Notes: a model not told the origin generated them from the sequence alone. Counted from the first letter of the stretch, positions 16,507 through 51,164 are shown. The stretch: DNA of 64,000 nt from an uncultured delta proteobacterium (GCA_963733195.1 CAVTCR010000019.1:32001-96000); one strand, 5' to 3'. Translations and numbers: made by a program.

Positions 16507-16600
16507 AGAACACGAACACGCAACACGTAATACGCAACACGTCACACGTAATATGTCAGGTAAAAGGATAAAAGGATAAAGGAAAAGGGGAAACGAAAAA
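16505..16600. repeat. Heptamer (AACACGN)n followed by octamer (GGATAAAN)n arrays
   Basis: aacacgc aacacgt aatacgc aacacgt cacacgt; ggtaaaa ggataaaa ggataaa. Confidence 0.75.
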
Positions 16601-19769: not shown

Positions 19770-19925
19770 TCCAGTAACGAGTAATGAGTATTAAGCGACT
19801 AGACATAACACGCAACATGTAACTCGTGATATATGATGCGGGTGCGTGGTACGTGATACATGAGGCGTGACCATCTTTCTCTCTCCTTACGTTTCACGCT
19901 TCACGCTCCACGTTTTACGTTTCAC
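19770..19925. repeat. Composite heptamer arrays
   Basis: cagtaa cgagtaa tgagta; aacacgc aacatgt; gcgtggt acgtgat; ttacgtt tcacgct tcacgct ccacgtt ttacgtt. Confidence 0.7.
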
Positions 19926-22286
19926 GTTTTTGCCCGCTCAATTGCCTGCAATACACGCTCCGGCGTTATCGGGACCTCATTGATGCGTACCCCAAACGGC
20001 GCCAAGGCATCCGCTACCGCATTGGCAATCGCCGCCGGTGGTGCAATCGCTCCGCCCTCGCCCATACCTTTGATGCCAGTTGGGGTATATGGAGACGGGC
20101 TTTCAATATGACCAATTTCTACCCGTGGAACGTCAACCGCAGTCGGCACGAGATAGTCCATCAAGGTCCCAGTAAGAAACTGTCCGTTCTCGTCGTACAG
20201 CGCTTGCTCATACAAGGCCGTGCCAATGCCTTGCGCCACACCACCTTGAATCTGCCCATCAACTACCATCGGGTTGATAATCGTGCCGCAGTCTTCCACC
20301 ACGATGTAGCGCAGCAACTTCACTTGTCCGGTTTCACTATCGACCTCAACGGTGGCAACATGCGTCGCGTTGGAGTGCGTGGATGGCGGTGGTTCGTAGT
20401 GCGAGGTCGCCTCAAGCCCTGGTTCTTCTCCGACAAACTGCGCATAGAGAATACGCTGGGCAATGTCTTTGATCGGCACTACTGTCGCTCCGTCTTGTTT
20501 TCGTTGCACCATACCGTCAGCCAATTGCAAATCATCAGACGGTACTTCACTGAGCCGAGAAGCAGCCCGCAGCAATTTCTCTCGCACTTTGCGTGAGGCA
20601 AAAATCGTTGCCCCGCCTCCAGTAACAGCACTGCGACTTCCCCATGTCCCCCAACCATACGGTATAGCCATCGTGTCACCTTCAATCACCTTCACATCAG
20701 CCAACGGCACCCCCAGTTCATCCGCCGCTATCTGTGCGAACGTCGTTTCGTGACTTTGGCCATGAGAATGGGTTCCAACCAACACGGTCACCTTGCCGTT
20801 GACATCCATGCGAACAGTGGCGGATTCATAGCCACCTACCGGCGCTCCCATCGCCTGAAACGCTTGAGAACTGGGCGCGGTTCCTTCAATGTAGCAACCG
20901 ACACCTAAGCCAATGTACTTTCCCTGCTCACGCAAGCGTTGTTGTTGCGTACGAAACTCCTCGTGACCAACCATCTCCAACGCCATACGCAGAGCTTCTT
21001 GATGACTGCCACTTTCAACCTCTGCCCCTGTGATCGTGGTATATGGGTGATCAGCCTTGCGGATCATGTTGCGCAGTCGTAACTCCATTCGATCAATCCC
21101 GAGTTTCTGCGCTGCCAGATCCATGAGACGTTCCATCGTAAGCACTGCGATCGGCAAGCCGACACCACGATACGGGCCAATAGTCGTTTTGTTGGTCGCT
21201 ACCGACAACGCCTCGAAACGATAAGCTGGAACCTTGTACGGTCCGGGCATCGCCGAGGCAGCGTGCCCAGCCTCCAAAGCCGAGCCCCACGGATAATCCG
21301 AATAGGCTCCAACATCACTAATATAGCGGCCAGTGATTCCGAGTATCGTCCCGTCCTTTTTGAGCGCGAGTTCACCGTACACAACTTGGTGTTTAGCATG
21401 GAGCGAGGCAGTCAGGTGCTCTCGGCGATCTTCGATCCATTTCACCGGTCGATTTAACCGACGGCTAAGGAATGCGGCCAATACCTCTTCACCAAACAGG
21501 TGGGCTTTGAGGCCAAATCCACCACCCACATCAGGAGCAATCACACGAATGTGGTGTTCAGGAAAATTGATCGCACGCGCGAGGTGAGTACGGACGACAT
21601 GCGGAGTTTGCGTCGAAGACCATACCGTCAGCGAATCCGTAGCAGCTTCAAAACTGGCAGACACAGCCGCGCGTCTCCATCGGCATGGCCATGTGTCGGC
21701 CTGTCACAAAACGTTCGGCTACCACACAATCGGCGGCTTGAAAGGCTTTGCTCACCTCGCCGATCTCGACTTTGATCTCCTGCATGAGGTTGTCACCCCA
21801 CTCGTCATGCACAAGAACCGTCTCAGCGGTCAGCGCTTTCTCGACATCCCACACCGTATCAAGAGGGTCATATTCTACGTCGATCAGATTCGCCGCATCT
21901 TCAGCAACGTAGCGATTGACGGCGACGACCACAGCCACAGGTTCCCCAACAAAACGTACTTTTCCGTGTGCCAGTACCGGCCAATCACATGATTTGTGAC
22001 GTGGGGCTCGTGTCGCATCGTACTCAACTCGTAATGGTGGAATTTCGCTGGCGATGTCCGCACCGCTGAGCACGGCCAGCACTCCTGGGTGTGACTTCGC
22101 TGCACTCACATCGACCTGCGTGATTTTCGCATGCGCATACGGGCTACGCACAAATGCCATCGCCACCGTGCCGGGAAGCTGAACATCGTCCACGTAACGA
22201 CTCTTCCCTAACAGCACCCGTGGGTCTTCAACGCGCCTGACCTCGGCTCCTACCATTTTACCTGTACCAACGAGACTCGTTGCCAT
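19922..22286 (-). CDS. Xanthine dehydrogenase-family molybdopterin subunit (CoxL-like), frameshift near 21655
   Basis: RRVEDPR, VRSPYAHA, METRG, PDVGGGFGLK, PYRGVG, HGQSHET, WGSRS, GQIQGGVAQG, KGMGEGG. Confidence 0.93.
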
Positions 22287-22884: not shown

Positions 22885-23035
22885 GGAGAAATGGGGAAAT
22901 GGACAAACGGATAAATGGAAGGGAAAGACGCTTCTTATTATTTTTCCTTTCCTTTTCCCCTTTTCCCCGTTTCTCCATTTATCCCCTCCTCTTTTATCAT
23001 CCCCCTATAGCCTTACGCCTACAGCCTAAAGCCTT
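22885..23035. repeat. Octamer inverted array plus (CCTAYAG)n heptamers
   Basis: ggagaaat ggggaaat ggacaaac ggataaat ... ttttcccc gtttctcc atttatcc; cctatag ccttacg cctacag cctaaag. Confidence 0.75.
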
Positions 23036-24656: not shown

Positions 24657-27600
24657 TCAAGAGGAAAACAGCGCCAGATTCTCAGCTAACTGGTCCAGCA
24701 GTGCCTTCGCCTCTTGCAAGTCCTTGGTGTCAAACCCTTCGGTGAACCAGTTGTAGATCTCTGACAACATCTTGTGAGCTTCGGTTCGCTTGCCTTGCTG
24801 CTGCCAGAGGCGAGCGAGGCTTGTTGTCGCCCGTAGCTCCCAGCGACTTGGCTTGCTGCTTTCGGGCAATCTCGATGGCTTTGAGAAAACACGCTTCGGC
24901 TTCGCTCTTGGGGGTCGGGGTGTCAGAGGTCGGGGGTTGGTAACTGACAACTTGAGAACTGATGACTGCATAACTTTTGTAAGATGAGTTCCCCCTTGAG
25001 GCGGTAGAGCTCGGCTTCGTTCCAGCGTTCCCCATTCTTCTCCACCATGGCCAGCGCTTCAGCGATCACCCTCAGCCCTTCTTCTGCCTGGCCGCCTTGC
25101 GCATAGGCCTGGGCCAACGCGCCCAGAAATAGTGGGACATACATCTCTGCCCCGGTGGCCTGCCAGGCAGCCAAGCCCTGGCGTATCTGGGCAATGCCTT
25201 TTTCGGCTTCGTCCCCGTTCGGCCAACGCCCAGCCTTGCAGGATAGTCCCCATTGCCAACCAGATCGGAAATCCTTGCTCGGCACAGAGGGCAATCGGCT
25301 GCTTCTGCCCGCTCTTGGGCCGCCTGTCCCTCTCGGCGGAGCTGATGGAGCACGAGGGCATAGGCCAGGGCAAGAGCCAAACTATGGGAGTGAGACAACT
25401 CCTGGGCCAGGGTCAATGCCTCGTGGCTGCTCTTGAGAGCCTGGTCCGGATAGCCCAGAGCCCACAGAGCCCTCGCCATATAGCCCCGGCAGGACACTCC
25501 AGGATCATACCCGCCGTAGAGGAGCGCGTGGGAGCGGTGCTGCGCAGGATTGTACAGGGTCAGCCCCTGCTCCAGGTGCTTGCGGGCGGGACAAACTCTC
25601 CTAACGGCACCAAAGTCTGCCATTGGGCACTATGGGCCTCCAGGAGACAGCGCCGAGTCGTGTCCACGCTGAGCGAGGGTGAGCAGCTCGTTGGCGAGTT
25701 CACGCGCGGTTTCTAACTCCCCCCGTATTTGATAAAACTCCCACAGGCCGCGCAGCGCGGGGAACAGCTGAGGGGTTTCTCCCACCTGCCGGCACAGTGC
25801 CCGAGCGCGGGTGTAGGCGGTTCCCACTTCTGGGGCCCCCGCGACTTTGGTGGCCATCAAAGCCGGCCCCAGGGTGAGATGCAGCGTGAGTTCTTGCTGG
25901 GTCCGTGCGGGACTATCAGGCAGGGTCTGGAGCAGCTCTAAGGCTGTGGTGAGGTGGGTGATCGCTTCCGTATTGGCCGACCGCTGCACGGCCTGTTGTC
26001 CAGCCAGATGGAGATAGGTGATGGCCTTCTCGGTGTTGGCGCTGCGGCTGTAGTGATGGGCTAAGTCGCTGTAGTGCTCAGGTCAATGTCGCGGCGTACA
26101 CGGTTTCCAACGCCTGGCCGGTGCGCTCGTGTAACAGCTTGCGCTGCTCTTGCAGCACCGTGCCATAGGCGACTTCCTGCGTCAGCGCGTGCTTGAAGAT
26201 GTACTCCACTTCGGGAAACGCGGGCTGCTCGTAGAGAAACTCTTTGCGCTGGAGGGAGGCAAGGAGGCGATAGAGTTCGTCTTCGGGCTGGGCAATCACC
26301 TGGCGGATCAGACTCACCGGGAACTCGCGACCGATCACCGCGAGCTGTTGCAGCAGGGCTTTCTCTTCCGGGCAGGCGGTCAATGCGGGCGGCCAGCACG
26401 CCTTGCACGGTGGTCGGAATATGCAGATCGCCGTGGGTGGCGCGCACGAGCGCCCTGGAGAACCAGGCCGAAGCCGTGCCCCTACACCGTCGCGCACAAG
26501 CACCCCTTGCTCCACCAACTCCTGGACAATCTCTTCCATGAAGAACGGCGTGCCTTCGGTCTTTTCCAAGATCAAGTGTTTGAGGGCTGTGGAGGGGCGC
26601 ACCGATGTGTGCGTCCGGTCCCTGTGGGCCGACACTCAGGTCGGCCCCTACAGAAAGACCAGGAGCACGTCAAGGAATTCTTCCGCTTCCGCTTTGCCGA
26701 ATGGCGCCAAGCGCAATTGGGTGTAGTACGTCTTCTGCCCCCACTCCTGGCGGTATTCAGGCCGGTAGTTCACCAGCAACAGAATCCGCGCGCTGGCCAC
26801 ACTCTCACTCAGCACATCGAGAAATCCCTGGGTCTCATTGTCGATCCAATGCAGGTCTTCAAAGATCAAGATCAACGGTTGATTGAGACTCTCGCGCAGG
26901 AAGAGTTTCTTGAGCGCCTCAAACGTCCGCCGCCGCCGAATCTGCGGGTCCATCTGTGCAAAGGTCGAGGGCTGGTCTTCAATGCCCAGCAGGCAAACAG
27001 ATACGGCAGAGTATCTTCCAAGCTGCGGTCGAGCGTCGAGGACCTTGCCAGTGATCTTCTCTCGGCGTTTACGTTCATCATCTTGGGCCTGGATGTCGAA
27101 GTAACTTTTCAGCAGTTCAATCACTGGCAGATACGGCGAGGCTTTGCCATGCGAGACTGAGTAGGCTTCTAATCGTAAGAGTAGGGGCGTATTGCGATAC
27201 GCCCCTACAAATTCGTGAAACAACCGCGACTTGCCTAACCCCGGCTCACCCATCACGCCGACGATTTGCCCATGTCCGGCTTTCACTTGCTCAAGGCCCG
27301 CTGTAGCTGGTCCATCTCACTCTGTCGCCCGACGAAGCGGGTGAGCCCCCGTCTGGCCGCCACTTGCAACTTCGTGCGTAATGGTCCTGCCCCCAGCACT
27401 TCGTAGACGTGGAGCGGCTCTTCCACCCCTTTGATCTGCGTCTTGCCTAAATTCTTGAACTCGAAGTAGCCGTCTGTGAGCTTATGGGTGTAGGCGGTCA
27501 CCAGAATCGAGCCGGGCGCGGCGAGTTGTTCCATCCGGGCGGCCAAGTTGGTCGAGTGGCCCACGGGGACATAATCCGCATGCAAGTCATCTTTGCGAAT

Positions 27601-28287
27601 GGAGCGCAGCACCACCTCGCCAGTGTTAATGCCGACGCGCATGAGCAGGGGCGGATAGCCTTTCGCTCGCAGCGTATCGGCATAGCGGCGCATCTCCTCT
27701 TGCATGCGCAGTGCGGCATAGAGCGCGCGCTGGGGATGATCCTCGTGTGCCAGCGGAGCACCAAACAGCGCGAAGATGCCATCGCCGAGCGCTTGGGCGA
27801 CATAGCCGTCATAGCGATGCACCGCATCCATCATCAGCTGGAGCGCCGGGTCAATAATCGCTCGCGCCTCTTCGGGGTCGAGCCCTTCGATCAGGGCGGT
27901 GGAGCCTTTGAGATCAGCAAACAAGGCCGTGATCGTCTTGCGCTCGCCGTCCGTAAGCCCGCGCGCTTCCATCGCCGCTTGCTCGGCACGGATGCGCTCG
28001 GCGAGATGTGGTGGAGTATAGCTGCTTGGGGGTTGGGGATTAGGGGTTGGGGACTGGGTAGGACTCGGAACTCGGGGCTCAGAACTCGGAACTGGCGCGG
28101 CGCCTGTCCAGACCAGCACTTTTCCGTCCTCATCGAGCGCCAGCCGCTTGGCATCGATGAGATCGGCTTTGAGGTCTTCGACGTATTCGTCGTCAATACC
28201 GAACCGGCGCTTCAGCACACGATAGGCGACTCGTCCTTCGTGTTGGAGCAGCTCAGTCACTTGGGCTAGGATTTCATCAAATGTCAT
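24657..28287 (-). CDS. Class III adenylate/guanylate cyclase + AAA (STAND-like) ATPase + TPR protein, paralog 1 (multiple frameshifts)
   Basis: [85 protein letters not shown]. Confidence 0.88.
26433..26485. repeat. GTAG-type REP remnant inside the coding sequence
   Basis: Minus strand GTAGGGGCACGGC...CGTGCGCGCCACCCAC. Confidence 0.65.
26589..26651. repeat. REP doublet (REPIN-like) inside the coding sequence
   Basis: Minus strand GTAGGGGCCGACCTGAGTGTCGGCCC...GGACGCACACATCGGTGCGCCCCTCCAC. Confidence 0.78.
27181..27208. repeat. Perfect REP palindrome read in frame (VGAYRNTPL)
   Basis: GTAGGGGCGTAT-TGCG-ATACGCCCCTAC, 12-bp stem. Confidence 0.85.
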
Positions 28288-28385
28288 CGTCGCCTCCCCA
28301 CTCTGCGCCGTTTCTCACCGGATGTCCTCGCTTTTCATAGCTGCCCTGTTTACAATTCTCAATCTGCGTTAGGGGACAAACCGCT

Positions 28386-29457
28386 ATGACACTCCTCGAT
28401 CACAACGCTCTCGAAGAAATTGCCCTCGGCGCGACCGTGCTTGGCACCGGCGGTGGCGGTGATCCGACCCTCGGCAAACTCATGGCACAGCAGGCCATGG
28501 CAAAGCATGGCCCGGTGCAATTGCTCCCACTCGACGAAGTGCTAGATGACGGCTGGATCATTCCCACAGCAATGATGGGCGCGCCCACTGTTCTGGTCGA
28601 AAAAATTCCCAGCGGTACGGAAGTGCTCGACGCGTACCGTATGCTGGAGCAACGACTGCAATGTCGTGCAATAGCGACTGTCTCAGCCGAGGCTGGTGGC
28701 GTCAACTCGATGATTCCGATAGTTGTCGCAGCAACTCTCAAGGTCCCACTCGTCGATGCCGATGGTATGGGCCGTGCCTTTCCAGAAATTCAAATGGTCA
28801 CCCCTACCCTCCACGGTGTGTCGGCAACCCCAATGGCAATTGCCGATGAAAAAGGGAACCGGGTGTTACTAGAAACCCCGGACAACTTTTGGACTGAGCG
28901 TCTCGCACGAACGACCACCATACAGATGGGCTGCTCTGCCTGTGTTGCACTATATGCAATGCCCGGCAAAGTTGCCAAGAAAGCATTGGTAAAAGGGACG
29001 ATCTCCTTGGCACGAGAGATCGGACGCACGCTCCGGACCGGTCGTGAGCAGAAACGCGATCCCATTGAAGCATTGACGACGCTGATTACAAGGCCGACGC
29101 TTGTGTGAGGGCAAGATTGTTGACGTACGACGACGCACGGAGCGGGGATTCGCTCGTGGAGAAATGGACATCGTTGGCACCGGGCGAGATGCAGGCTCGC
29201 AGTTCAAGATTTCTTTTCAGAACGAAAATCTGGTCTTTTGGCATGATGGTCAACCGAAAGTCACCACACCTGATTTGATCACTGTGGTCGACGACCAAAC
29301 TGGATTGCCTATCACTACCGAAGCCTTGAAATACGGTCTGCGGGTTGTTGTCCTCGGCTTTCCGTGTCATCCGCAATGGCGGACACCACAGGGTTTGAAA
29401 CTGGTGGGGCCACGGTATTTTGGTTATGAGATCGAGTATGCACCTTTAGAGAAATGA
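28386..29457 (+). CDS. DUF917 family protein, frameshift near 29090
   Basis: LGTGGGGDP, MMGAPTVLVEK, EAGGVNS, DADGMGRAFPE, FQNENL, PDLI, TTE.LKYG, VGPRYFG. Confidence 0.9.
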
Positions 29458-29604
29458 TGAACGATTAACGCGGAATGCGGAATGACGAATGGGGAAGGAG
29501 GGCTGACGACTTTAGGATCCTCATGCCTTCCCTTTAGCCTTCAGCCTGTGGCCTATAGCTTTTTTCCGTTACATCATCTCATCAGCTTCAGTATTGAGAG
29601 AAAA

Positions 29605-31177
29605 ATGGACTCTGAGAATTCTCCCAAAAGTTTCCGTCTTGGTATCGACGTCGGTGGCACCAACACTGATGCGGTTATTCTCGATGCTACTGACCAGGTC
29701 ATCGCCAAAATCAAGTCGCCAACAACGCGGATGTCACTACCGGTATAGTCAACGCGTTGCAAGCAGTTCTCGCGGCTTCGCGACTATCACCCCAGACCAT
29801 CGGCTACGCCATGCTGGGCACCACTCATTGTACCAACGCGATTGTGACGCGTCAGGGACTTACCGCTGTCGGTGTCATTCGTCTTGGGTGCTCCCGCAAC
29901 TCGTCTGTGGAACCCTTGCTCACCTGGCCTCAAGATCTGCGACAGATGGTTTGCCCCAAGCATTCATTCTCCGCGGCGGCCATGAATACAATGGTGAACC
30001 TCTTGCTGCCCTTGATCCACAAGAGGTTCAGCAACACACTTCGGCAGATGAAGGGGAAGTCCAGGCTAGTCGCCATCACTGGCGTTTTCTCGCCAGTAAA
30101 TCCAGAACACGAACTACGAGTTCGCGATCTCGTTCACGAAGAGTTAGGTACAGAGATGCCTGTGAGCCTCTCCAGTGAAATCGGTAGCGTCAGCTGCTGG
30201 AGCGAGAGAATGCAACAGTGTCTGAACGCGGCACTGATCGCGGTCGCACGGACAGCAATTGAGAGGTTTTGCCCATGCGATTCACCAACTCAAATTCCCG
30301 CTACCTTTTTCTTAGGACAGAACGATGGGAGCTTGATGTCCGTTGACTATGCTCTCCATTATCCCATCTTCACTATCGCTTCAGGTCCAGCGAACAGCAT
30401 TCGTGGCGCAGCGTATTTAAGCCAAGTGCGCGACGCAATCGTGATCGATATCGGGGGGACGACTACTGACATTGGCATTTTGCAGAAAGGATTTCCTCGT
30501 GAGTCAGCTCTCGCTGTGGAGATTGGTGGCGTACGAACAAATTTCCGCATGCCGGATCTGTTATCCATCGGTTTGGGAGGTGGCAGTCGTGTTCACCAGG
30601 AGGACTGAATTCCGTAGGGCCGGACAGCGTTGGGTACCGCCTGACTGAGGAAGCCCTCGTGTTTGGTGGCCAGCAGATGACCGCGACTGACTTGGCTGTC
30701 GCTGCGGGTCAAGCACAACTGGGCGATCCTGCCCGTGTCAGCATCTCTCCCGATGAGTTTGCGCGAAGCAGGACTTGCCTATATCAGTCGCTGCCTTGCG
30801 GATCAGTATTGATCGCATGAAACTCACTGCTGATCCCGTACCGGTTATTGTCGTTGGTGGTGGAAGTATCCTCTGTCCCGAACAGCTACCCGGTGTGTCA
30901 GAAATCATCCGACCCACCACACCATGATGTCGCCAATGCTATTGGTGTTGCGATAGCCCAGGTCAGTGGAACGATCGACCGGGTCTTTGCGTTAGACAAT
31001 ATGAGCCGTACGCAGGCACTCGACGAAGCCTCGCGTCTCGCAAAGGAACGTGCCTGTAGCGCTGGGGCCGCACCCGAGAGTGTTGAGCTGGTTGACCTGG
31101 AAGAGATTCCCCTTGCCTATTTGCCTGGCAATGCCGTCCGTATCAAGGCGAAAGCCGCAGGAGCATTAAAGTTGTGA
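29605..31177 (+). CDS. Hydantoinase/oxoprolinase family protein (multiple frameshifts)
   Basis: LGIDVGGTNTDA, MLGTTHCTNA, QNDGSLM, SGPANSIRGA, DIGGTTTD, TNFRMPD, VANAIG, EEIPLAYLPG. Confidence 0.88.
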
Positions 31178-31190
31178 GACGCACTGGAAA

Positions 31191-31561
31191 ATGAAAACCG
31201 ACTCGCTCTTCTACCGCCGCTGAGTCGGGAGGAGATCCAAGCCATGCTCGAATTGACAGATACCGATTTGAAGCAGACGCGGTTTTATCAAGACGTGTTT
31301 ACAGAAGGCGAAAGAACTGGGCGGCAAGAAGGGCGGCAAGAAGAAGGGCGGCAAGAAGGGCGGCAAGAAGGGCGGCAAGAAGAAGGCGTCACGCTAATCC
31401 TCCGCCAACTCCAACGCCGGTGTGGCGAGCTAGCAGCGCCGATGCAGGAACAGATTGCCCGTTTGCGTTTGCCGCAACTGGAAGCCTTAGGAGAGGCGTT
31501 ACTGGACTTCCGTGGGCCAGCAGATCTGGAGCAGTGGTTGGCGAGCCATGGGCGAGAGTAA
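31191..31561 (+). pseudogene. Internally deleted Rpn/DUF2887-DUF4351 gene; intact C-terminal ORF 31244-31561
   Basis: MKTDSLFYR joined directly to PLSREEIQAML; DLKQTRFYQD, (GRQE)n, LILRQL.RRCG, LEALGEALLDF..ADL..WL. Confidence 0.82.
31319..31386 (+). repeat. 12-bp tandem repeat GGGCGGCAAGAA x5 (GRQE)
   Basis: Direct inspection. Confidence 0.9.
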
Positions 31562-31604
31562 AGCAGAGCCCCTCGCCACACAACTTCACCCATGCCTCAA
31601 TCAC

Positions 31605-34600
31605 TCAATGACTCAATTCTTCGAGTAGCACCTTCGCCTCTTGCAAATCCTTGGTGTCAAACCCCTCGGTGAACCAGTTGTAGACCTCAGATAACATTCT
31701 GTGTTCTTTGTCGAGACTAACACGTGTTTCGTGTTGCGTGGTACGTGATTCGGGCTGCACCGCTTGTCGTTGCCGCAGTCGAACGAGGCTCATCACCGCG
31801 CGGAGTTCCCAGGATTTGGCTTGCTGCTTCCTGAGCGATGTCGATGGCCTTCAGAAAACACTCCTCCGCCTTGGGCCGCCAGTGGGGGTTGGGACTGTTC
31901 TCTGTGACTCCGGACCCTTGGACTCCGGACTTTGCTTTCATGCGACTAATTCCCCCTTGAGTCGATACAGCTCCGCCGTGTAATAACCCTCTTTATTCTT
32001 TTCGCCGACGGTGAATGCTTCACTCAAAAGTGCCAAGCTTTCCTCCTTCCGCCCTACTCTTCCATGCATCTTCGCTAGTAAGGCGAGAAACTGTGTTAGT
32101 CCTAGCTCAGCTCCCGTAACTTGAAATGCGGCCAAACCTTCACGCATCAACGCAATGCCAGCCTCACTTTGTCCTTCTTCAGCCACGGACCAGCCCTGAA
32201 ATAATCTCCCCCACGCAGAACCACAACGCAAACCCCTGCTCACTCACGATTGAAAGCAGCTCTTCTGCAGCAGATCGAGCAGCTTGAGCATTCCCCTGGA
32301 AAGCATAGAGCCAAGCATCTGTGGTCAACGCAAATGCCATATGTTGAGATGAGAAAGACTACGAGCGAGAGCAACCGCCGATTACTCCGCTCGATCGCTT
32401 GCTCTGGAAAACCCAGCATCCACAATGTCCACGAAGCAAAAGCTCAGACATGTCATTCCAGGGTCCTGACCGGACACAACGGCAAGAGATCCATGTAATT
32501 CAGGCTTGTAGAGGGTAGTACCGAGTTCCAAATGTTCTCGCGCCTTTTGCAATTCTCCGCGTAACATAAGCGTTTCCCCTACAGCCCAATGTGCCTCCAC
32601 TAGTGAAACCTTGTCCTCAGCATTTTGTACGAAATGGAGTAGTTGCTTGGCAACCTCAAGTGCCGTGTCATACCTACCTTGTACTAGATGTGAGACCCAC
32701 CAGCCCAACAATACGGGGAAGACTTGAGAAGTTTCATCCATGCTTCGGCAGAGTTCTAGAGCACGAGCATACGTAGCTTGCACTTCGGCCGCCCCATAGC
32801 CCTTGATAGCAATAAGTGCCGGACCAAGGGTAGCGTGCAGCATCAATTCTCGCTGAGCACGTGCAGGCGTATCTGATAGGGTTTCGAGCAATTCGAGCCC
32901 TGTAGTGAGGTGACTGATCGCTTCTACGTTGGCCGACCGCTGGACGGCCTGTTGCCCCGCAAGCTGCAAATATTCTATGGCCTTCTCTGAGTTGCCGCTA
33001 CGACTGTAATGATGGGCTAACTCGTTGTAATGGTCATCAAGGCGAGCGTGGTACACCTCTTCGATTGCTTGCGCGGTGCGTTCGTGGAGAATCTTGCGTC
33101 GCTCGATCAGCAATGAGTTGTAGGCGACTTCTTGCGTCAATGCGTGCTTGAAGATGTACTCGACCTCGGGGAAGGCAGGTTGCTCGTAGACAAACTCGCC
33201 TGCCTGTAATCGTGCCAAGAGGCGCAGCAGGTCAGCTTCTGCGTGCGTTGCAACCTTGCGCAACAAGCTCGCCGAAAATTCCCGTCCAATCACTGCTAGT
33301 GTCTGTAGCAACGCCTTCTCTTCTGCAGGTAGGCGATCTATACGCGCCGTAAGGACGCCTTGCACCGTAGTCGGAAGATGGAGGGCAACATACTGGTGGG
33401 CGGTGCTCACCCTACGCGGATCGGTCAATACTCCCTGCTCGCGCAAGGTCTGTACAATCTCCTCCATAAAGAAGGGGTTGCCTTCGGTCTTGTCGAGGAT
33501 AAATTTTTTCAGTGGTTCGAGGGTCTCATTTGACACCCTCACCCTATCCTTCTCCCGTCCCGGGAGAGGGAATTCTCCGGCCTGCCCTAATAACACGGTC
33601 AACATCTCTTCTGCTTGCTCTTTACCTAACGGATCAAGCCGCAGCTGCGAGAAATATGTTCGCCCACTCCAGGTCTGCTGATACTCCGGGCGGTAGTTCA
33701 CCAACAAGAGCACTCTCGCAGTTGCAACACTTTCACTCAGTAACTGCAGGAAGGCTTGGGTTTCATTATCCAACCAATGCAAGTCTTCAAAGAAAATCAG
33801 CAAAGGTTGATTCAGACTCTCGCGTAATAACAGGCGCTTGATCGCCTCTAAGATCCGTTTGCGCCTGAGCTGTAGATCCATCTGCTGTAACGGCGAGGTT
33901 AGCTCGGCGAGCCCTAGCAGAAAGAACAAATACGGCAGCGTATCTTCCAGACTCCGATCCAGGGTCAGAACCTTGCCAGTAATCTTTTCACGTCGTCGTC
34001 GTTCATCATCGTACGGACTTAACTGAAAATAGTTCTGCAATAGATCAATCAAGGGCAAATACGGATACGCCTTGCCATGGGAAACTGAAAAGGTCTCCAA
34101 AACCAGACACCCAGGCTGAGCACGCAACTTGAACTCATAGAATAAACGCGACTTGCCGACGCCAGGCTCGCCCATCACTCCTACGATCTGCCCATGTCCA
34201 GCTTTGGCAGAATCTAGTGCGCGTAGCAGGTGTTCCATTTCACTCTGTCGTCCAACAAATCGAGCTAACCCGCGCCTCACTGATAGTTGCAACTTGGTTC
34301 GCAGTGGACCTACCCCGGCTACTTCATAGATTTTTATCGGTTCGGCAAACCCCTTCACGTGCGCTTCGCCGAGCGACTTGAACTCAAAATAACCCTCGGT
34401 GAGTTTATAGGTCTGTTCACTCACCATGATCGAGCCTGGTGTGGCCAAGCTCTCCAGCCGTGAAGCCAGATGCGTCGAGTGGCCGACGGGCACGTAGTCC
34501 GTATGCAGATCATCTTTGCGAATCGAGCGCAGCACCACTTCGCCAGTGTTCACCCCAACACGCAACTGCAAGTTGATACCTTTCTCTCGCCGCAACAGTC

Positions 34601-35204
34601 CAGCACGTTTGCGCCCTTCTTCTTGCATAAGCAGCGCTGCATACAGTGCTCGTTGGGGATGATCTTCATGAGCAATGGGAGCGCCGAACAAGGCAAAGAT
34701 GCCATCGCCCAAGGATTGGGCTACATAGCCTTCGTAGCGATGCACCGCATCCATCATCAACTGCAGCGTCGGGTCGATAATCGCCCTCGCTTCTTCAGGA
34801 TCGAGGTCAGCAATGAGATCGGTCGAGTCTTTAATATCGGCAAACAGAGCGGTAATGCTTTTGCGCTCACCATCCGCGACACTCCGGGCTTCCATCGCTT
34901 CCCGTTCTGCCTGAATACGGTCGGCAAGATGGGGGGGCGTCCATTGACCAGGGGCTCCTTCCTTTTCGCCCTCCTTGTTCCCGTTTATCCCTTTATCCTT
35001 TTTTCCATTTATCCCTTTCCCTATCCAAACGAGCACTTTCCCCTCTTCATCGCTTGCCACACGCTTGGCGTCGATGAGGTCGGCTTTGAGGTCTTCGATG
35101 TACTCGTCATCGATCTCGAAACGACGCTTCAGCGCGCGATAGGCAACCCGCCCTTCGCGCTGGAGAAGTTCAGTCACTTGGGTCAAGATTTCATCAAATG
35201 TCAT
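31605..35204 (-). CDS. Class III adenylate/guanylate cyclase + AAA ATPase + TPR protein, paralog 2 (frameshifts in the 3' part)
   Basis: 940-aa ORF highly similar to paralog 1 (MTFDEIL.QV, ERKSITALFAD, GEPGVGKSRL, EGNPFFMEE); continues to [15 protein letters not shown]. Confidence 0.9.
33394..33415. repeat. GTAG-type REP inside the coding sequence
   Basis: Minus strand GTAGGGTGAGCACCGCCCACC; related intergenic copy at 46335-46359. Confidence 0.7.
33535..33570. repeat. CCCTCACCC...CTCCC..GGGAGAGGG-class REP inside the coding sequence
   Basis: accctcaccctatccttctcccgtcccgggagaggg, read as FPLPGREKDRVRV. Confidence 0.75.
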
Positions 35205-41328: not shown

Positions 41329-43576
41329 ATGCTCTATCACTTCCACGACTTTGAACTCGATGAACGCCTCTACCAACTGCGCCGGGGCGGTAAGCCGGTA
41401 GAGATCGAGCCCAGGGTTTTCGATGTCCTTTTCTATCTCCTGCACAATCGCGATCGTGTAATTTCTAAAGATGAACTTTTGGAGAAGCTCTGGCCCGGCC
41501 AGGTGGTAACCGAGACGGCTCTCACCCGCTGCATCGTCGCCGCCCGCAAGGCAGTGGGTGACGACGGCACCAAGCAGCAGGTGGTCGAGACCCAGCATGG
41601 TCGTGGGTATCGATTCGTGGCCACGGTTAGTGAGCGCGGCGTGGAGCGGAAGCTCGCGGCGGTGCTCAGCGCCGATGTCAAAGGCTATAGCCGCCTGATG
41701 GGCGAGGATGAGGTCGGCACCGTCCGTACCTTGACCGCCTACCGCCAGCTCATGACCACGATTATTCAGCAGCATCACGGCCGCGTGGTGGATTCTCCGG
41801 GCGATAACCTGCTGGCGGAGTTTGCCAGTGTGGTCGATGCCGTGCAGGCCGCCGTTGCCATCCAGCAGGAGCTGAAGATCAAGAACGCTGATCTGCCTGC
41901 TTCTCGCCGGATGGAGTTTCGCATTGGCATCAACCTCGGGGACGTGATCGTGGAGGGGGAGCGGATCTACGGCGATGGGGTCAACATCGCCGCGCGGGTA
42001 GAGAGCTTAGCCGAAGCGAGCGGCATTTGTATCTCCGGCCCGGTGTATGACCAAGTCAAGAGTAAGCTCGCACTCCAGTATGAGAGCTTAGGGGAGCAGC
42101 CAGTCAAGAACATTGCCGAGCCAGTGCGGGTGTACCGCATCAAGCTGGAACCCGAATCTACTTCTTCCGCCGTAGCGGTAGCCGAGTCTCCCCACCCAGT
42201 AGAAACTCAACCACCAGAGATTCCTCTTCCACTTCCCCAGCCACGGGTGTGGCCCAGAAGGACGCTAATCCTGAGTAGCGTGCTCCTGCTTGTAGGAATT
42301 ATCGTTGCAGTGCAGTACCTGTCCCTGCGCCCGCCGGCCCCCTCGGCCAACATTCCTCCTGAGCAATCTCAGCCTCTCCCCCTTCCTGACAAGCCTTCCA
42401 TCGTCGTGTTGCCCTTCGTCAACATGAGCGAGGACCCCAAGCAGGAGTATTTCAGTGACGGCATCACCGAGGACCTCACCACTGACCTCTCCCGCATCTC
42501 CAGCCTGTTTGTCATCGCCCGCAACTCGGCCTTCACCTACAAGGGCAAGGCAACGAAGGTGCAAGAGGTCAGTAAAGAGCTGGGCGTGCGGTATGTATTG
42601 GAAGGCAGTGTACGCAGGCGGACGACAGGTGCGGGTCACGGCGCAGTTGATCGACGCCACCACCGGCTATCATCTCTGGTCGGAGCGCTATGACCGCCCG
42701 CTTCAAAGACATCTTTGCCTTGCAAGATGAGATCGTGCGGAAGATCGTGACGCACGCTGAAGCTGAAGCTCGACGTTGCGAGGAGCAAGCGGTACATCGC
42801 GCAGCAAACGCACCGACAACCTGGAGGCCTATGATTCTTTCTTGCGTGGGATGGGAGTGCTATTAACGCGCCACACGAAAGAGGCGAATCTCCAGGCGCG
42901 GCAGATGTTTGAGAAAGCCGTCGAGCTGGACCCGGCATATGCGGAGGCGTACGTGGGCCTGAGTTGGACTTACTACGCTAGAGTGGATTTTTCTATGGAG
43001 TCCAGTCCCCCAGACGCTGGAGCAGGCTTTGGCGCTGGATGCAAAAGGCCCGAGCTCTGGATGATTCCTTGCGCTCAGGCTCACCTGCTCTTGGGCCGTC
43101 TGTCTGTTGAAAAAACAGCATGACCAAGCCATAGCTGAGGCAGAGCGGGCTGTCGCCGCTCGATCCTAATTACGCCGAGGGCTATGCCGGTTGGGGTTCA
43201 TTCTAGATTGGCGGGCGGCCAGAGGAAGCCATTGGGTTGGTCGAGAAGGCGCAGCGCCTTGACCCCCGTCTATCCGCCCTTTTACTACCCTTTGACCTTA
43301 GGCCAGTCCTATCGCTTGACGGGGCGGTACGCGGAGGCGATTGCACCCGATAAGAGAACTGCTTCATCTAATCCCAATCTGCCGGGTGCCCATGCTGATC
43401 CTGGCAGTTATCTACAGTGAGTTAGGTCGGATGGAGGAGGCCCGGGCTGAAGTGGCAGAAGTCTTGCGGCTCAGTCCCAATCTCTCTCTGGAGGTTGAGG
43501 CAGAGGATTCCCTTACAAAGATCCAGTGGAAGTTAGAGCGGTATCTGCCGCCTTGCGCAAGGCGGGGCTCAAATGA
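41329..43576 (+). CDS. wHTH (CadC/OmpR-type) + class III cyclase + TM + TolB-like + TPR protein (frameshifts after 42620)
   Basis: FHDFELDE...SKDELL...GRGYRF; RKLAAVLSADVKGYS, FRIGINLGD, GDGVNIAAR; TM helix; PDKPSIVVLPF, YFSDGITED; ends LRKAGLK*. Confidence 0.88.
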
Positions 43577-47406: not shown

Positions 47407-50306
47407 ATGGCGGAAAAGCTGCGTAAGAAGGTGGCTATGGAACAGAATCACGCCTCACGCACCGAAACGGAAGCAGTCATCCAGCAAACGTCGCGGTCTG
47501 AGCTTCAAACGGTACTTCACCCGTCCAGGTATTCATCCGTACGCTGAAGTCGAATGGGAAAAACGAAGCGCCGTAATCTCTGGAGAAAAAGGCGATACCG
47601 TTTTCGAGCAGCATGATGTCGAGATTCCGAAACCGTGGTCACAACTCGCGACCAACGTCGTCGTGTCCAAGTATTTTCGCGGACAGATCGGAACGCCGCA
47701 ACGTGAGCATAGTGTCAAACAGTTGATCGGTCGCGTGGTTGACACCATCACCGGATGGGGCCGCAAGGATGGCTATTTCGCCAGCGAAGAAGATGCACTG
47801 GTCTTTGCCGAAGAACTGACGCACCTCCTCGTCGAGCAGCGACTCGCATTCAACAGCCCAGTCTGGTTCAATGTTGGCGTCGAACCTCACCCGCAGTGTA
47901 GTGCGTGTTTCATCCTTTCGGTTGACGACAAGATGGATTCTATTCTTGACTGGTACCGCAAAGAAGGCGTCATCTTTAAAGGCGGTTCAGGTTCAGGGGT
48001 GAACCTTTCGCGTATCCGCTCCTCGAAAGAGCGCTTAGCCGGCGGTGGCACGGCCTCTGGTCCAGTTTCGTTTATGCGCGCAGCCGACGCTTCAGCTGGA
48101 GTCATCAAGTCAGGTGGCAAAACCCGCCGTGCTGCAAAGATGGTCGTGTTGAATGCAGATCATCCCGATGTTCTTGAATTCGTCCAATGCAAAGCAACAG
48201 AAGAAAAGAAGGCATGGGCGTTGATCGAAGCTGGCTACGATAGCTCGATCGACGGTGAAGCCTATGGTTCCGTCTTCTTCCAGAATGCCAACAACTCGGT
48301 CCGGGTCACAGATGACTTCATGCGGGCGGTCGTCGATAATCGTCCGTGGTCGACTCGCTACGTCACTACAGGAGATATTTGCGCGACCCTCTCCGCTCGC
48401 GAGCTTTTACAAAAGATTGCCGAAGCCACCTGGTTCTGTGGTGACCCAGGCATGCAGTTTGATACGACGATCAATGCGTGGCATACCTGCTCGAATACAG
48501 GTCGCATCAACGCATCGAACCCATGCAGCGAATACATGCACCTCGATGACAGTGCGTGTAATCTTGCCTCGCTCAATCTGATGAAGTTTCTCAAAGACGA
48601 CGGCGGGTTTGATTCGACCTCGTTTAAGCATGCGGTCGATATTAGTATCACCGCGCAAGATATCGTGGTGGATAATTCGAGTTATCCCACCAGCGAAATT
48701 ACGGAAACCGCCAAGGCGTTTCGTGAACTTGGCCTTGGATATGCGAATTTGGGCGCATTGCTCATGTCACTCGGTCTTCCCTACGACTCAGAAGCTGGAC
48801 GCCAGTACGCCGGAGCTATCACTGCACTAATGACAGGTGAGGCATATTTGCAGTCTGCCCGCATCGCCGAACAGATGGCACCATTCTCTGGTTATGCAGT
48901 GAATCGCGAACCAATGCTCGGTGTCATCGAGAAGCATCGCACGTATGCGCATAAACTTGATCCCTCGCTTGTCCCGCTCGATTTACTCTCTGACGCACGA
49001 AAATCCTGGGACGAAGCCTTAGCCGTCGGCCGTAAGAGCGGCTATCGCAATTCGCAAGCAACTGTTCTCGCACCAACCGGTACTATCGCCTTCATGATGG
49101 ACTGTGACACAACTGGTGTCGAGCCTGATATCGCGCTTGGTGAAATACAAACGGTTAGTTGGCGGCGGATTGTTGAAAATTGTCAACAACACCGTTCCGC
49201 GTGCACTGAAACGGCTCGGCTATGATAGCAAAGCCATTCAGGCCATCGTCGAATACATCGACGAACACGAAACGATCGAAGGTGCACCGCGGCTCCGCAA
49301 CGAGCATCTGCCGGTATTCGATTGCGCCTTCAAACCGTCGCGTGGCAGCCGGTCGATTCACTACCTCGGACATCTTCGCATGATGGGAGCGGTCCAGCCG
49401 TTCCTTTCTGGGGCGATTTCCAAAACGATTAACATGCCGACCGACGCCACGGTTGAGGATATCACTGAAGCGTACCTCGAAGCGTGGCGGCTAGGACTCA
49501 AAGCCGTCGCGATCTATCGTGACGGATGTAAGCGCGTACAGCCATTGGCTACCGGCGAGAAGAAAGCCGAACAGGCGATTCCTGCAGTGGTTGCGGAACC
49601 AACTCCTATCCGCCGACGACTCCCGAACGATCGCGATGCGATTTGTCATAAATTCGACATTGCTGGTCACGAAGGCTATATCCACGTCGGGTTTTATGAA
49701 GACGGCACTCCAGGTGAGATTTTCATTAAGATGGCGAAAGAAGGTAGTACGATTTCTGGATTGATGGATAGCATCGCTACGCTGACGTCGCTTGCGCTCC
49801 AATACGGGGTGCCGCTCGAAGCCTTGGTCAGCAAATTCGGCCATGTACGTTTTGAGCCCTCGGGCTTCACCAAGAACCCAGAGATTCCCTACGCAAAGTC
49901 ACTCACAGATTATATCTTCCGCTTCTTGGGCAACCGCTTCTTACCAGCCGAACAAAGCCAGGACGCCAGCCTGAGTGAAGGGAACGGCCAGCGAGAGTCC
50001 TCACGAGGTGAGATTGAGCGAGCGCATCATCCAGCAGCCCTCACGGATGGAGCCAGGGCGACGCTCAGCGGCACCGCCTCACTGCAGGCAAACAGTGCAG
50101 CAGTGGCGTATATCAACGGTGCTCACCCCTCCCACGAGGATTCTCTCCGGTCAGCGCCTACTGATGTACACTCTTCAACATCAGTGAGTAGAACATGGCA
50201 GTCACAAGCTGATGCGCCGAGTTGTGCCGACTGTGGATCAATCATGATTCGTAACGGGTCGTGTTACAAATGTCTCAACTGTGGCGCGACCAGTGGTTGC
50301 TCGTGA
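47407..50306 (+). CDS. nrdJ: Vitamin B12-dependent (class II) ribonucleotide reductase, frameshifts near 47520-47600 and 49140
   Basis: FNSPVWFN, QCSACFI, GSGSG, SNPCSEY, CNLAS, GLGYANLG, APTGT, SGAISKT, YRDG, TSCPD-like domain, C-terminal Zn ribbon. Confidence 0.95.
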
Positions 50307-50763: not shown

Positions 50764-50846
50764 CGCGGCTATATCAAGAGAACTGCACCATCAGTTCCTT
50801 CTGGGGGTAACATTTTTCACCAACCCCAATCCCCAGCCCCTACCCC

Positions 50847-51164
50847 CTAGTTCGATAGCGTCACCGGCATCGGTTCAGGATCAGAGTACGAGATACCGTA
50901 GACAAGGTGCGGTCCTGCGGTCTTCGCAATCGTCACTTTTTTTGGTCCCATACGAGGAGTGATATGCAAAATGAACCCATTCTTCGCGGTTAATAATCGA
51001 CTCAGCTTTTGATTTTGTAAGGAAGGCTGCTCCATACGTCCCCTGCTGTCGCAATTGAAATGACCAACGTTGTCACCATACGGTCTGGTTGTTCATCTGA
51101 CAATAACCTCACGTTCTTCACGTGGGAAGTGACAATTTGTTTTCTCCACCAGCGCGACGCTCAT
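50847..51164 (-). CDS. Hypothetical 105-aa protein with in-frame UGA at codon 24 (candidate selenoprotein, or nonsense mutation/error)
   Basis: RBS GAGGA, ATG 51164; frame continuous with ORF 50847-51035 except for TGA at 51093-95, which is followed by a stem-loop. Confidence 0.5.

Follow-up and report, generated by a model that had tools for sequence, protein, structure and literature searches.

In-frame REP palindromes and heptamer arrays at fixed loops of an expanded cyclase/STAND/TPR family in Candidatus Binatia

Rickettsia palindromic elements (RPEs), which Ogata and colleagues are said to have described in protein-coding genes in 2000, are selfish palindromes that lie in frame in functional genes; they are longer than the elements considered here, belong to a reduced intracellular genome and occupy many unrelated genes. 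Systems of repetitive extragenic palindromes (REPs) and REP-associated tyrosine transposases (RAYTs) were reportedly described by Nunvar in 2010 and by Bertels and Rainey in 2011, and bacterial heptanucleotide tandem repeats (STRRs) reportedly by Mazel in 1990 and Mrazek in 2007. GTAG-headed palindromes inside open reading frames (ORFs) of known proteins have been documented to encode short peptides (Di Nocera, De Gregorio and Rocco 2013, PMC3733652). The passages of that paper cited here argue that intragenic GTAG/CGTC REPs occupy flexible linkers or loops, give mostly DNA replication and repair genes as their hosts, present one case of different REPs at about one site (recB of two Xanthomonas species), name the REP/REPIN-RAYT systems (REPtrons), and cite RPEs in the Background (PMC3733652). 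Here we describe two paralogous genes in a 64,000-nucleotide stretch of DNA from an uncultured soil bacterium, a delta proteobacterium (GCA_963733195.1 CAVTCR010000019.1:32001-96000; "the window"), which encode a class III cyclase, a STAND-type ATPase and tetratricopeptide repeats (TPR) and carry different small-repeat inserts at six sites (A to F), together with the protein family to which they belong.

Both RPEs and the elements described here are in-frame palindromes in genes, RPEs being spread and the present elements stacked in one expanded family. As with STRRs, degenerate 7-nt tandem arrays occur at gene junctions genome-wide and some are translated in frame; unlike STRRs, the arrays here form the linkers between domains throughout a paralog family, and also those of Der, GlnE, ProS and CarA, in Binatia. 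The variation seen consists of whole-cassette exchange, and not of adenine-directed substitution as in the targets of diversity-generating retroelements. In comparison with the intragenic REPs of PMC3733652, as presented in its cited passages, about one third of this genome's GTAG palindromes lie at three fixed loops of one paralog family, heptamer arrays occupy three further linkers, and exchange extends across dozens of paralogs and several genera. Our literature searches (REP/RAYT in coding or in-frame settings, Binatia adenylate cyclase, RPE), which covered PMC3733652 outside its supplements, did not find this family-level pattern: neither the concentration in one expanded family, nor two repeat classes stacked at five or six fixed sites, nor paralog-scale in-place exchange, nor a REP inside a RAYT-like gene. 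The finding extends the known oddity of intragenic REPs and does not demonstrate a new mechanism of diversity.

The reading we favour, with a probability of roughly 0.6, is that disordered loops of this family act as sinks for two classes of small repeat, that the REPs among them turn over in place, and that the loops vary as a side effect of carrying selfish or mutational DNA that is tolerated. In what follows G000 is the window's own genome (6.95 Mb), G002-G015 and similar handles are relatives, L-numbers are loci or ORFs, and C-numbers are contigs of G000. Fifty same-site pairs were compared: in 9/50 the 28-nt REPs were identical and the flanks 77% identical, and in 41/50 the REPs differed and the flanks were 76% identical. 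Because wholly different REPs thus lie between flanks as alike as those around identical ones, these sequence comparisons indicate that resident REPs are replaced in place. L026 and L027 have flanks 95% and 83% identical, wholly different inner stems, and perfect palindromes in both. At site D the 12 codons on each side were 0.79-0.94 identical against 0.67-0.79 gene-wide, and in seven of seven site D pairs with different REPs the immediate flanks were at least as similar as the genes as a whole. On a quick maximum-likelihood tree (72 rows, 915 columns, sites removed), REP presence at site B (13/72 rows) required at least 10 changes, and loop states were scattered, with 10 changes at B, 27 at C and 18 at D. 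Well-supported sisters differed (L041/L031, L024/L039, L027/L048), the outgroups lacked REPs at all three of these sites, and one doublet type occupied either site C or site D, depending on the paralog.

The two window genes are these:

24657..28287, minus strand: paralog 1, a class III cyclase / AAA_16 (STAND) / TPR gene, in ORF pieces
31605..35204, minus strand: paralog 2, with the architecture of paralog 1; an open 940-aa ORF at 32382-35204, then frame breaks in the TPR part

In the open 940-aa part of paralog 2, Pfam domains were assigned as Guanylate_cyc (114-293), AAA_16 (315-500) and TPR. A reading made from the sequence alone had described the paralogs as closely aligned, but they are diverged, with 2296/3568 aligned columns identical (64.3%) in a global DNA alignment. 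The ten repeat inserts that it had listed are all present in the two genes at the positions given. They are named below by site letter and paralog number (A1 is site A of paralog 1), with periodicity tested against 2000 shuffles and arrays called with Tandem Repeats Finder (TRF) where indicated:

28028..28093, minus strand: A1, heptamer arrays of GTTCCGA type then CCCCAAC type, in the linker before the cyclase domain; TRF 28026-28052 and 28063-28093; lag 7 = 0.64, reached in 0/2000 shuffles
34958..35021, minus strand: A2, octamer array (GGATAAAN), translated GKGINGKKDKGING; TRF period 8 at 34979-35018; lag 8 = 0.57, reached in 11/2000 shuffles
27181..27208, minus strand: B1, 28-nt perfect GTAG REP palindrome with a 12-bp stem, after the Walker A helix; reads VGAYRNTPL
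26589..26651, minus strand: C1, REP doublet (REPIN-like) between two compensating 1-nt indels
33535..33570, minus strand: C2, CCCTCACCC..CTTCTCCC..GGGAGAGGG hairpin element, in frame (PLPGREKDRVRV)
26433..26485, minus strand: D1, degenerate long GTAG element (GTAGGGGCACGGCTTCGGCCTGG...)
33394..33415, minus strand: D2, degenerate GTAGGGTG..CCCACC palindrome (PRRVSTAH)
24905..24975, minus strand: E1, heptamer arrays between two TPR helices; lag 7 = 0.47, reached in 0/2000 shuffles
31880..31935, minus strand: E2, AGTCCGG heptamer array, of weak periodicity; lag 7 = 0.43, reached in 36/2000 shuffles
31718..31750, minus strand: F2, AACACGN heptamer array; TRF 31723-31752; lag 7 = 0.65, reached in 0/2000 shuffles
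16509..16599, no strand assigned: intergenic arrays with units as in F2 (AACACG; 16509-16548) and A2 (TAAAAGGA); TRF
50820..50847, no strand assigned: intergenic CCAACCC/CCCCAAC array of the A1 unit class; TRF

Further intergenic copies of insert units lie at 22890-22990 and 46335, so that the intergenic occurrence of these units within the window, also noted from the sequence alone, is real at all four places. Each REP-type insert has counterparts elsewhere. A near-identical B1-like REP is present at the equivalent position in four further paralog loci of G000 (on C77, on C74 and two on C59) and in relatives. C1 aligns with nine other genome copies, of which those on C59, C26 and C82 are in frame and read VGADxRVGPQGxGAHxxAxL; against these nine, paralog 1 lacks a base upstream of the doublet and has an extra base downstream. 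The C2 element family (CCCTCACCC..CCCTCTCCC..GGGAGAGGG) has 32 copies in G000, including 7 in family loci; scrambled motifs gave 1-3. D1 and D2 belong, in degenerate form, to two further GTAG families: D1-related elements of about 50 nt are found at site D of L032 and L061, and a PRRVGTAH element of the D2 type at site D of L029, L032, L060, L061 and L069. In the open ORF of paralog 2, which had been said to keep its frame through the inserts, C2 and D2 are indeed in frame.

The same sites are hot spots across the family. When 50 intact relative ORFs were aligned, the main regions of low occupancy coincided with sites A-F, which are thus where indels cluster. At sites B, C and D these ORFs carry translated GTAG palindromes (VGAIHESPL, VGAQHAAPL, VGATGRSPL, VGATHASPL, VGARRAVPL), doublets such as VGADRRVGPQ..GAHxGxPL, and SPQPSPQRGEGE..GERARVRG segments from a CCCTC..GAGGG element, with different repeat types occupying one position in different paralogs. 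All 39 of the 39 GTAG palindromes found in 108 non-redundant intact relative ORFs of at least 900 aa lie in frame 0 and read VGA....PL. Linkers A (in 72 genes) and E are periodic at the DNA level, with lag-7 autocorrelations of 0.46 and 0.45 and lag-3 values of 0.27 and 0.25, respectively, compared with 0.24 (lag 7) and 0.29 (lag 3) in a control stretch of the cyclase domain. Occupancy in G000 was counted from anchors, only sites with recognised anchors entering the denominators:

Site A: period-7/8 array at 16/53 anchored sites
Site B: GTAG palindrome at 8/116 anchored sites
Site C: GTAG palindrome at 13/37 anchored sites
Site D: GTAG palindrome at 9/37 anchored sites
Site E: period-7/8 array at 28/69 anchored sites
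Control windows in the cyclase domain: either feature at 0/53

Mapping of the sites onto an AlphaFold model of one member, L041 (1148 residues, mean pLDDT 86.9, pTM 0.77), places sites A-E in predicted low-confidence loops and linkers. The sole segments of pLDDT <50 in this model (52-79, 546-555, 603-606 and 1110-1125) fall within sites A (47-90), C (545-572), D (601-616) and E (1100-1135), and site B (357-370) is modelled as coil running from the Walker A helix to the strand that follows (block mean pLDDT 56). The body of the TPR array (H729-1084) contains none of the five mapped sites; site E falls between the last two helices of the array.

The inserts match the genome's own repeat library, as the sequence-only reading had supposed: identical 28-mers are common to intergenic DNA and family loops, array units occur in both places, and the inserted peptides derive from roughly ten recurring REP types that are also found in intergenic DNA. 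GTAG..CTAC palindromes with a stem of at least 11 number 92 in G000, against 8-21 for seven of eight control heads, and the stems of B1, C1 and many copies in the family measure 11-13 bp, with a GTAG head and a complementary CTAC tail. Strict 28-mers of the form GTAGGGGC-N12-GCCCCTAC number 25 in G000 and 41-65 in G005, G008, G009, G010 and G011, with 0 for a reversed-pattern control. Family loci make up 6.9% of G000 and contain 31/92 of the palindromes and 17/25 of the strict 28-mers; outside the family both are mostly found in short ORFs or at gene ends. The supposition that GTAG REPs are normally extragenic does not hold for these copies. A first palindrome scan (stem at least 9) had given 141 hits against 133 in a reversed-genome control and was uninformative, and the longer stem with head controls was used instead. 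Separately, the GAAG head marks a second palindrome family in G000 (GAAGCAATCTCT..AGAGATTGCTTC and GAAGAATCTCTC..GAGAGATTCTTC, for example at C1:62470-62502 and C5:14897-14928): GAAG..CTTC palindromes with a stem of at least 11 number 72, against 8-21 for the other control heads.

Arrays of period 7, 8, 14 or 16 number 1053 in G000. By place, these are intergenic or at an ORF edge in 742 cases, in family loci in 199 and in other long ORFs in 110. From these 110 arrays 24 were picked as hosts outside the family, of which 20 were fetched and scanned; the in-frame hosts included Der/EngA, GlnE, PrmC, ProS, CarA, ABC-F, hybrid histidine kinases and other AAA_16-TPR proteins. Because arrays also occupy linkers of Der, GlnE, ProS, CarA and others, heptamer arrays are a genome-wide trait of linkers in G000. 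REPs are far denser in the family than in other coding DNA.

The window genes are members of a massively expanded Candidatus Binatia cyclase/STAND/TPR family. A tblastn search with paralog 2 found 158 family loci in G000. Of 20 relatives, seven that belong to the same family had 33-47 matches each, one had none and the others 1-8; the matches in the seven are mostly intact, with stop-free ORFs of 1100-1240 aa. Cupriavidus, Ralstonia, Pandoraea and Paraburkholderia have homologues at 55-62% identity; the 79 loci kept include 1-2 per strain, a figure that does not measure copy number. Members begin with a 60-aa domain or a double zinc ribbon, followed by the class III cyclase, the STAND AAA_16 ATPase and TPR, and the domain order Guanylate_cyc + AAA_16 + TPR was confirmed in the family. 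In a Foldseek search with the AlphaFold model of one intact member, the top matches were a STAND-TPR protein (6mfv) and class III cyclases (2w01, 3r5g, 1wc1), with Avs3 and Apaf-1 also found. The nearest NCBIfam model, TIGR03903 (TOMM kinase/cyclase fusion), gave 359.2 bits, below its cut-off of 705.75, and the family is not that equivalog; it differs from the TOMM fusion in having no kinase domain and in its tens of copies per Binatia genome. The N-terminal module is itself swapped within the family at the heptamer linker: in L002, the closest relative of paralog 2 (75% identity; compared with window 32382-35204), a double zinc ribbon replaces the 60-aa MTFDEIL..GKVLVW domain. One relative, G003 (L006, L045, L046), has more than 40 family matches and one strict REP 28-mer; what remains in its family loops are degenerate relics, of which one has a fully compensated stem, and it has no match to the transposase-like gene described next.

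A search for a RAYT in the genome, suggested from the sequence alone, yielded two kinds of candidate. With PF01797 we found six IS200-type genes and one RAYT in G000 (on C70, above the cut-off); a further RAYT-like gene, on C26, was missed by that search and found through its REP context. This gene has three copies in G000. The copy at G000:C26:75262-75879 (L159:1501-2118) matches NF047646 with E = 1.3e-17 and 64 bits, below the curated 80-bit cut-off; it has one GTAGGGGC REP 18 nt upstream and a second translated inside its ORF. REPs both flank and lie within the C26-type gene in G000, G005 and G010, are internal in G011 and G008, and lie upstream in G015. The homologues in G005, G011, G010 and G008 carry different REP variants at this internal place, one of them read in frame 2. 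Among 21 related and thus non-independent genomes, compared without a formal test, 8/9 with at least 7 strict REP 28-mers carry a C26-type gene, as do 2/12 with at most 2. Because G009 has 54 REP 28-mers but only 2 family matches, REPs are independent of the cyclase family. The arrangement resembles REPtrons in its GTAG head, in the occurrence of REPs singly and as doublets, and in REP counts that track the gene; the candidate tyrosine transposase gene with REPs beside it (the C26 locus and homologues) may be a further likeness. Unlike in REPtrons, most strict GTAGGGGC copies are coding (17/25), and the RAYT-like protein falls below the NCBIfam cut-off and has a REP in its own ORF.

We propose the following course of events. 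Degenerate 7/8-nt tandem arrays fill linkers A, E and F, as in inter-domain linkers of many other proteins of G000, and GTAG REP/REPIN palindromes and the CCCTC..GAGGG hairpin element fill loops B, C and D, where they are read in a stop-free frame as VGAxxxxPL. Elements of both classes would be inherited and amplified through gene duplication. Other members of the genome's REP families would then replace resident REPs in place, with length and frame preserved, probably by action of a REP-associated tyrosine transposase on the resident REP or by REP-to-REP conversion. Exchange could proceed by transposase, by REP-to-REP conversion or by conversion between paralogs, possibly jointly, and the neutrality of the changes, like the enzyme and chemistry of replacement, is presumed in this proposal.

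Several points weigh against it. The replacement steps themselves were not observed, and 21/69 inner branches of the quick tree are unsupported. The commonest site B variant occurs six times in G000, always in the family and nowhere else, which fits plain inheritance. The sisters L027 and L048 differ at all three REP sites, with a local flank identity of 0.61-0.67 against 0.80 gene-wide, which fits conversion between paralogs. On the enzymatic side, the C26-type protein lies under the NF047646 cut-off (64 against 80 bits), the sole RAYT above it (C70, 131.6 bits) has REPs of another type, GTAGGCCGGAAT, on its flanks, and G002 has 10 strict REP 28-mers with no C26-type match. Perfect stems occur at 25/123 sites in genomes with the RAYT-like gene against 1/24 in those without, only a trend at few sites. 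Finally, REP density in the loops far exceeds that in intergenic DNA, and tolerance alone leaves the family's enrichment unexplained.

In a rival account, which we consider rather improbable, the many paralogs trade a restricted stock of older loop alleles by gene conversion or mosaic recombination, and the REPs are carried along as passengers. The scatter of loop states over the 72-row tree speaks for it; non-REP alleles such as GERGxYRLEKxPT are scattered too, and the reduced identity of L027 and L048 lies beside sites C and D. However, conversion tracts do not sit easily with the seven of seven site D pairs whose REPs differ between flanks as similar as, or more similar than, the genes as a whole, nor with REP types shared with intergenic DNA and the single-copy RAYT-like gene, nor with one doublet type at site C in some paralogs and D in others.

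A single ancient insertion per site, with arms that co-evolve by hairpin-templated (quasi-palindrome) template switching and no transposition, seems to us unlikely. It would account for the single frame shared by 39/39 REPs, for the confinement of the G000 site B variant to the family, and for L045, in which a fully compensated stem (GTCGAGGCGT..ACGCCTCGAC) occurs in a genome without a C26-type RAYT match. However, in several genomes the variants at family sites match, letter for letter, high-copy types present elsewhere (GTAGGGGCGACGCATGCGTCGCCCCTAC and GTAGGGGCGACCGGCCGGTCGCCCCTAC in G009, for instance), sister ORFs differ by the presence or absence of a REP, and REPs are missing from the outgroups at all three sites. 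We are similarly doubtful of a more active version of our own proposal, in which the resident REP would serve as a landing pad: a transposase would cut at the GTAG/CTAC ends and exchange the 27-28-nt module in frame, and the family may use this to vary loops for partner contact or oligomerisation.

The sequence-only reading had gone further, suggesting that repeats are written into or swapped between fixed linkers as a route to hypervariability in STAND proteins. The first part agrees with what we found, since the inserts are library repeats, the frame is kept in intact genes and close paralogs show swaps in place; the functional part is unsupported, as we found nothing pointing to selected hypervariability. 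We regard as quite improbable that cassettes are written into STAND loops because diversity is useful for sensing or defence. The concentration of palindromes and strict 28-mers in 6.9% of the genome, turnover between close paralogs, a fold resembling STAND proteins including Avs3 and Apaf-1, and tens of family copies per genome would all be in keeping with it. However, the sites are low-confidence loops of the N-terminal linker and nucleotide-binding oligomerisation domain (NOD) plus one inter-helix loop near the C-terminus, with none in the TPR body. The peptides come from the same roughly ten REP types as are seen in intergenic DNA, the RAYT-like gene shows swapping of the same kind, housekeeping linkers carry heptamer arrays, and G009 has abundant REPs with hardly any family matches.

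Paralog 1 shows at least 6 frame changes (tblastn frames 2,1,2,3,1,2,3 against the intact relative L013), paralog 2 is broken past residue 940 too, and an ORF of at least 1000 aa is present in only 7/77 near-full-length family copies of G000. Other genes of the window are likewise split into overlapping ORFs or pieces: a class II ribonucleotide reductase (47663-49225 + 49104-50306), a xanthine-dehydrogenase-type molybdenum subunit (21648-22286 + 19922-21664), and an FAD-binding subunit, an S-Me-THD protein and a hydantoinase. The G000 assembly seems to contain single-base indels throughout. Because other window genes, housekeeping genes included, are split in the same way and the ORFs of relatives are intact, the frameshifts in both window paralogs are probable assembly errors. 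Near-identical short metagenome contigs lack the indels at two of the paralog 1 frameshift places, 25647 and 25587, giving weak support; contigs from four metagenomes that match paralog 1 at 88% or more are short pieces of related genes, and the best of the public read runs contains at most 0.11 of the sampled paralog 1 words. Pseudogene decay or assembly artefact, with the inserts as junk in dead genes, was accordingly rejected as highly improbable despite the broken frames, given the equally split housekeeping genes, these contigs, and intact 1100-1240-aa relative ORFs that carry inserts of these kinds.

Three further observations concern the window itself. Metagenome joints connecting 24904 to 28033 were read as repeat artefacts in which the similar CCCC-type heptamer arrays of E1 and A1 are joined. 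An ORF at 41329-42693 joins a Trans_reg_C DNA-binding domain to a cyclase domain, a second cyclase architecture in the neighbourhood. A 12-nt tandem repeat (GGGCGGCAAGAA x5) lies at 31319-31382 in a minus-strand ORF just downstream of paralog 2.

The movement and persistence of REPs are poorly understood, and in this family each genome supplies dozens of dated target sites that can be aligned. Conserved coding sequence on either side makes it possible to follow how REPs there are gained, lost and exactly replaced in place, and the candidate transposase gene behaves alike; REP turnover is thereby measurable in metagenomes and testable in vitro. For the proteins, the family indicates that linkers of a large protein family can owe most of their sequence to two unrelated classes of small repeat, and it counsels caution in that the "hypervariable loops" of expanded STAND-like families may reflect the traffic of repeats rather than diversity that was selected.

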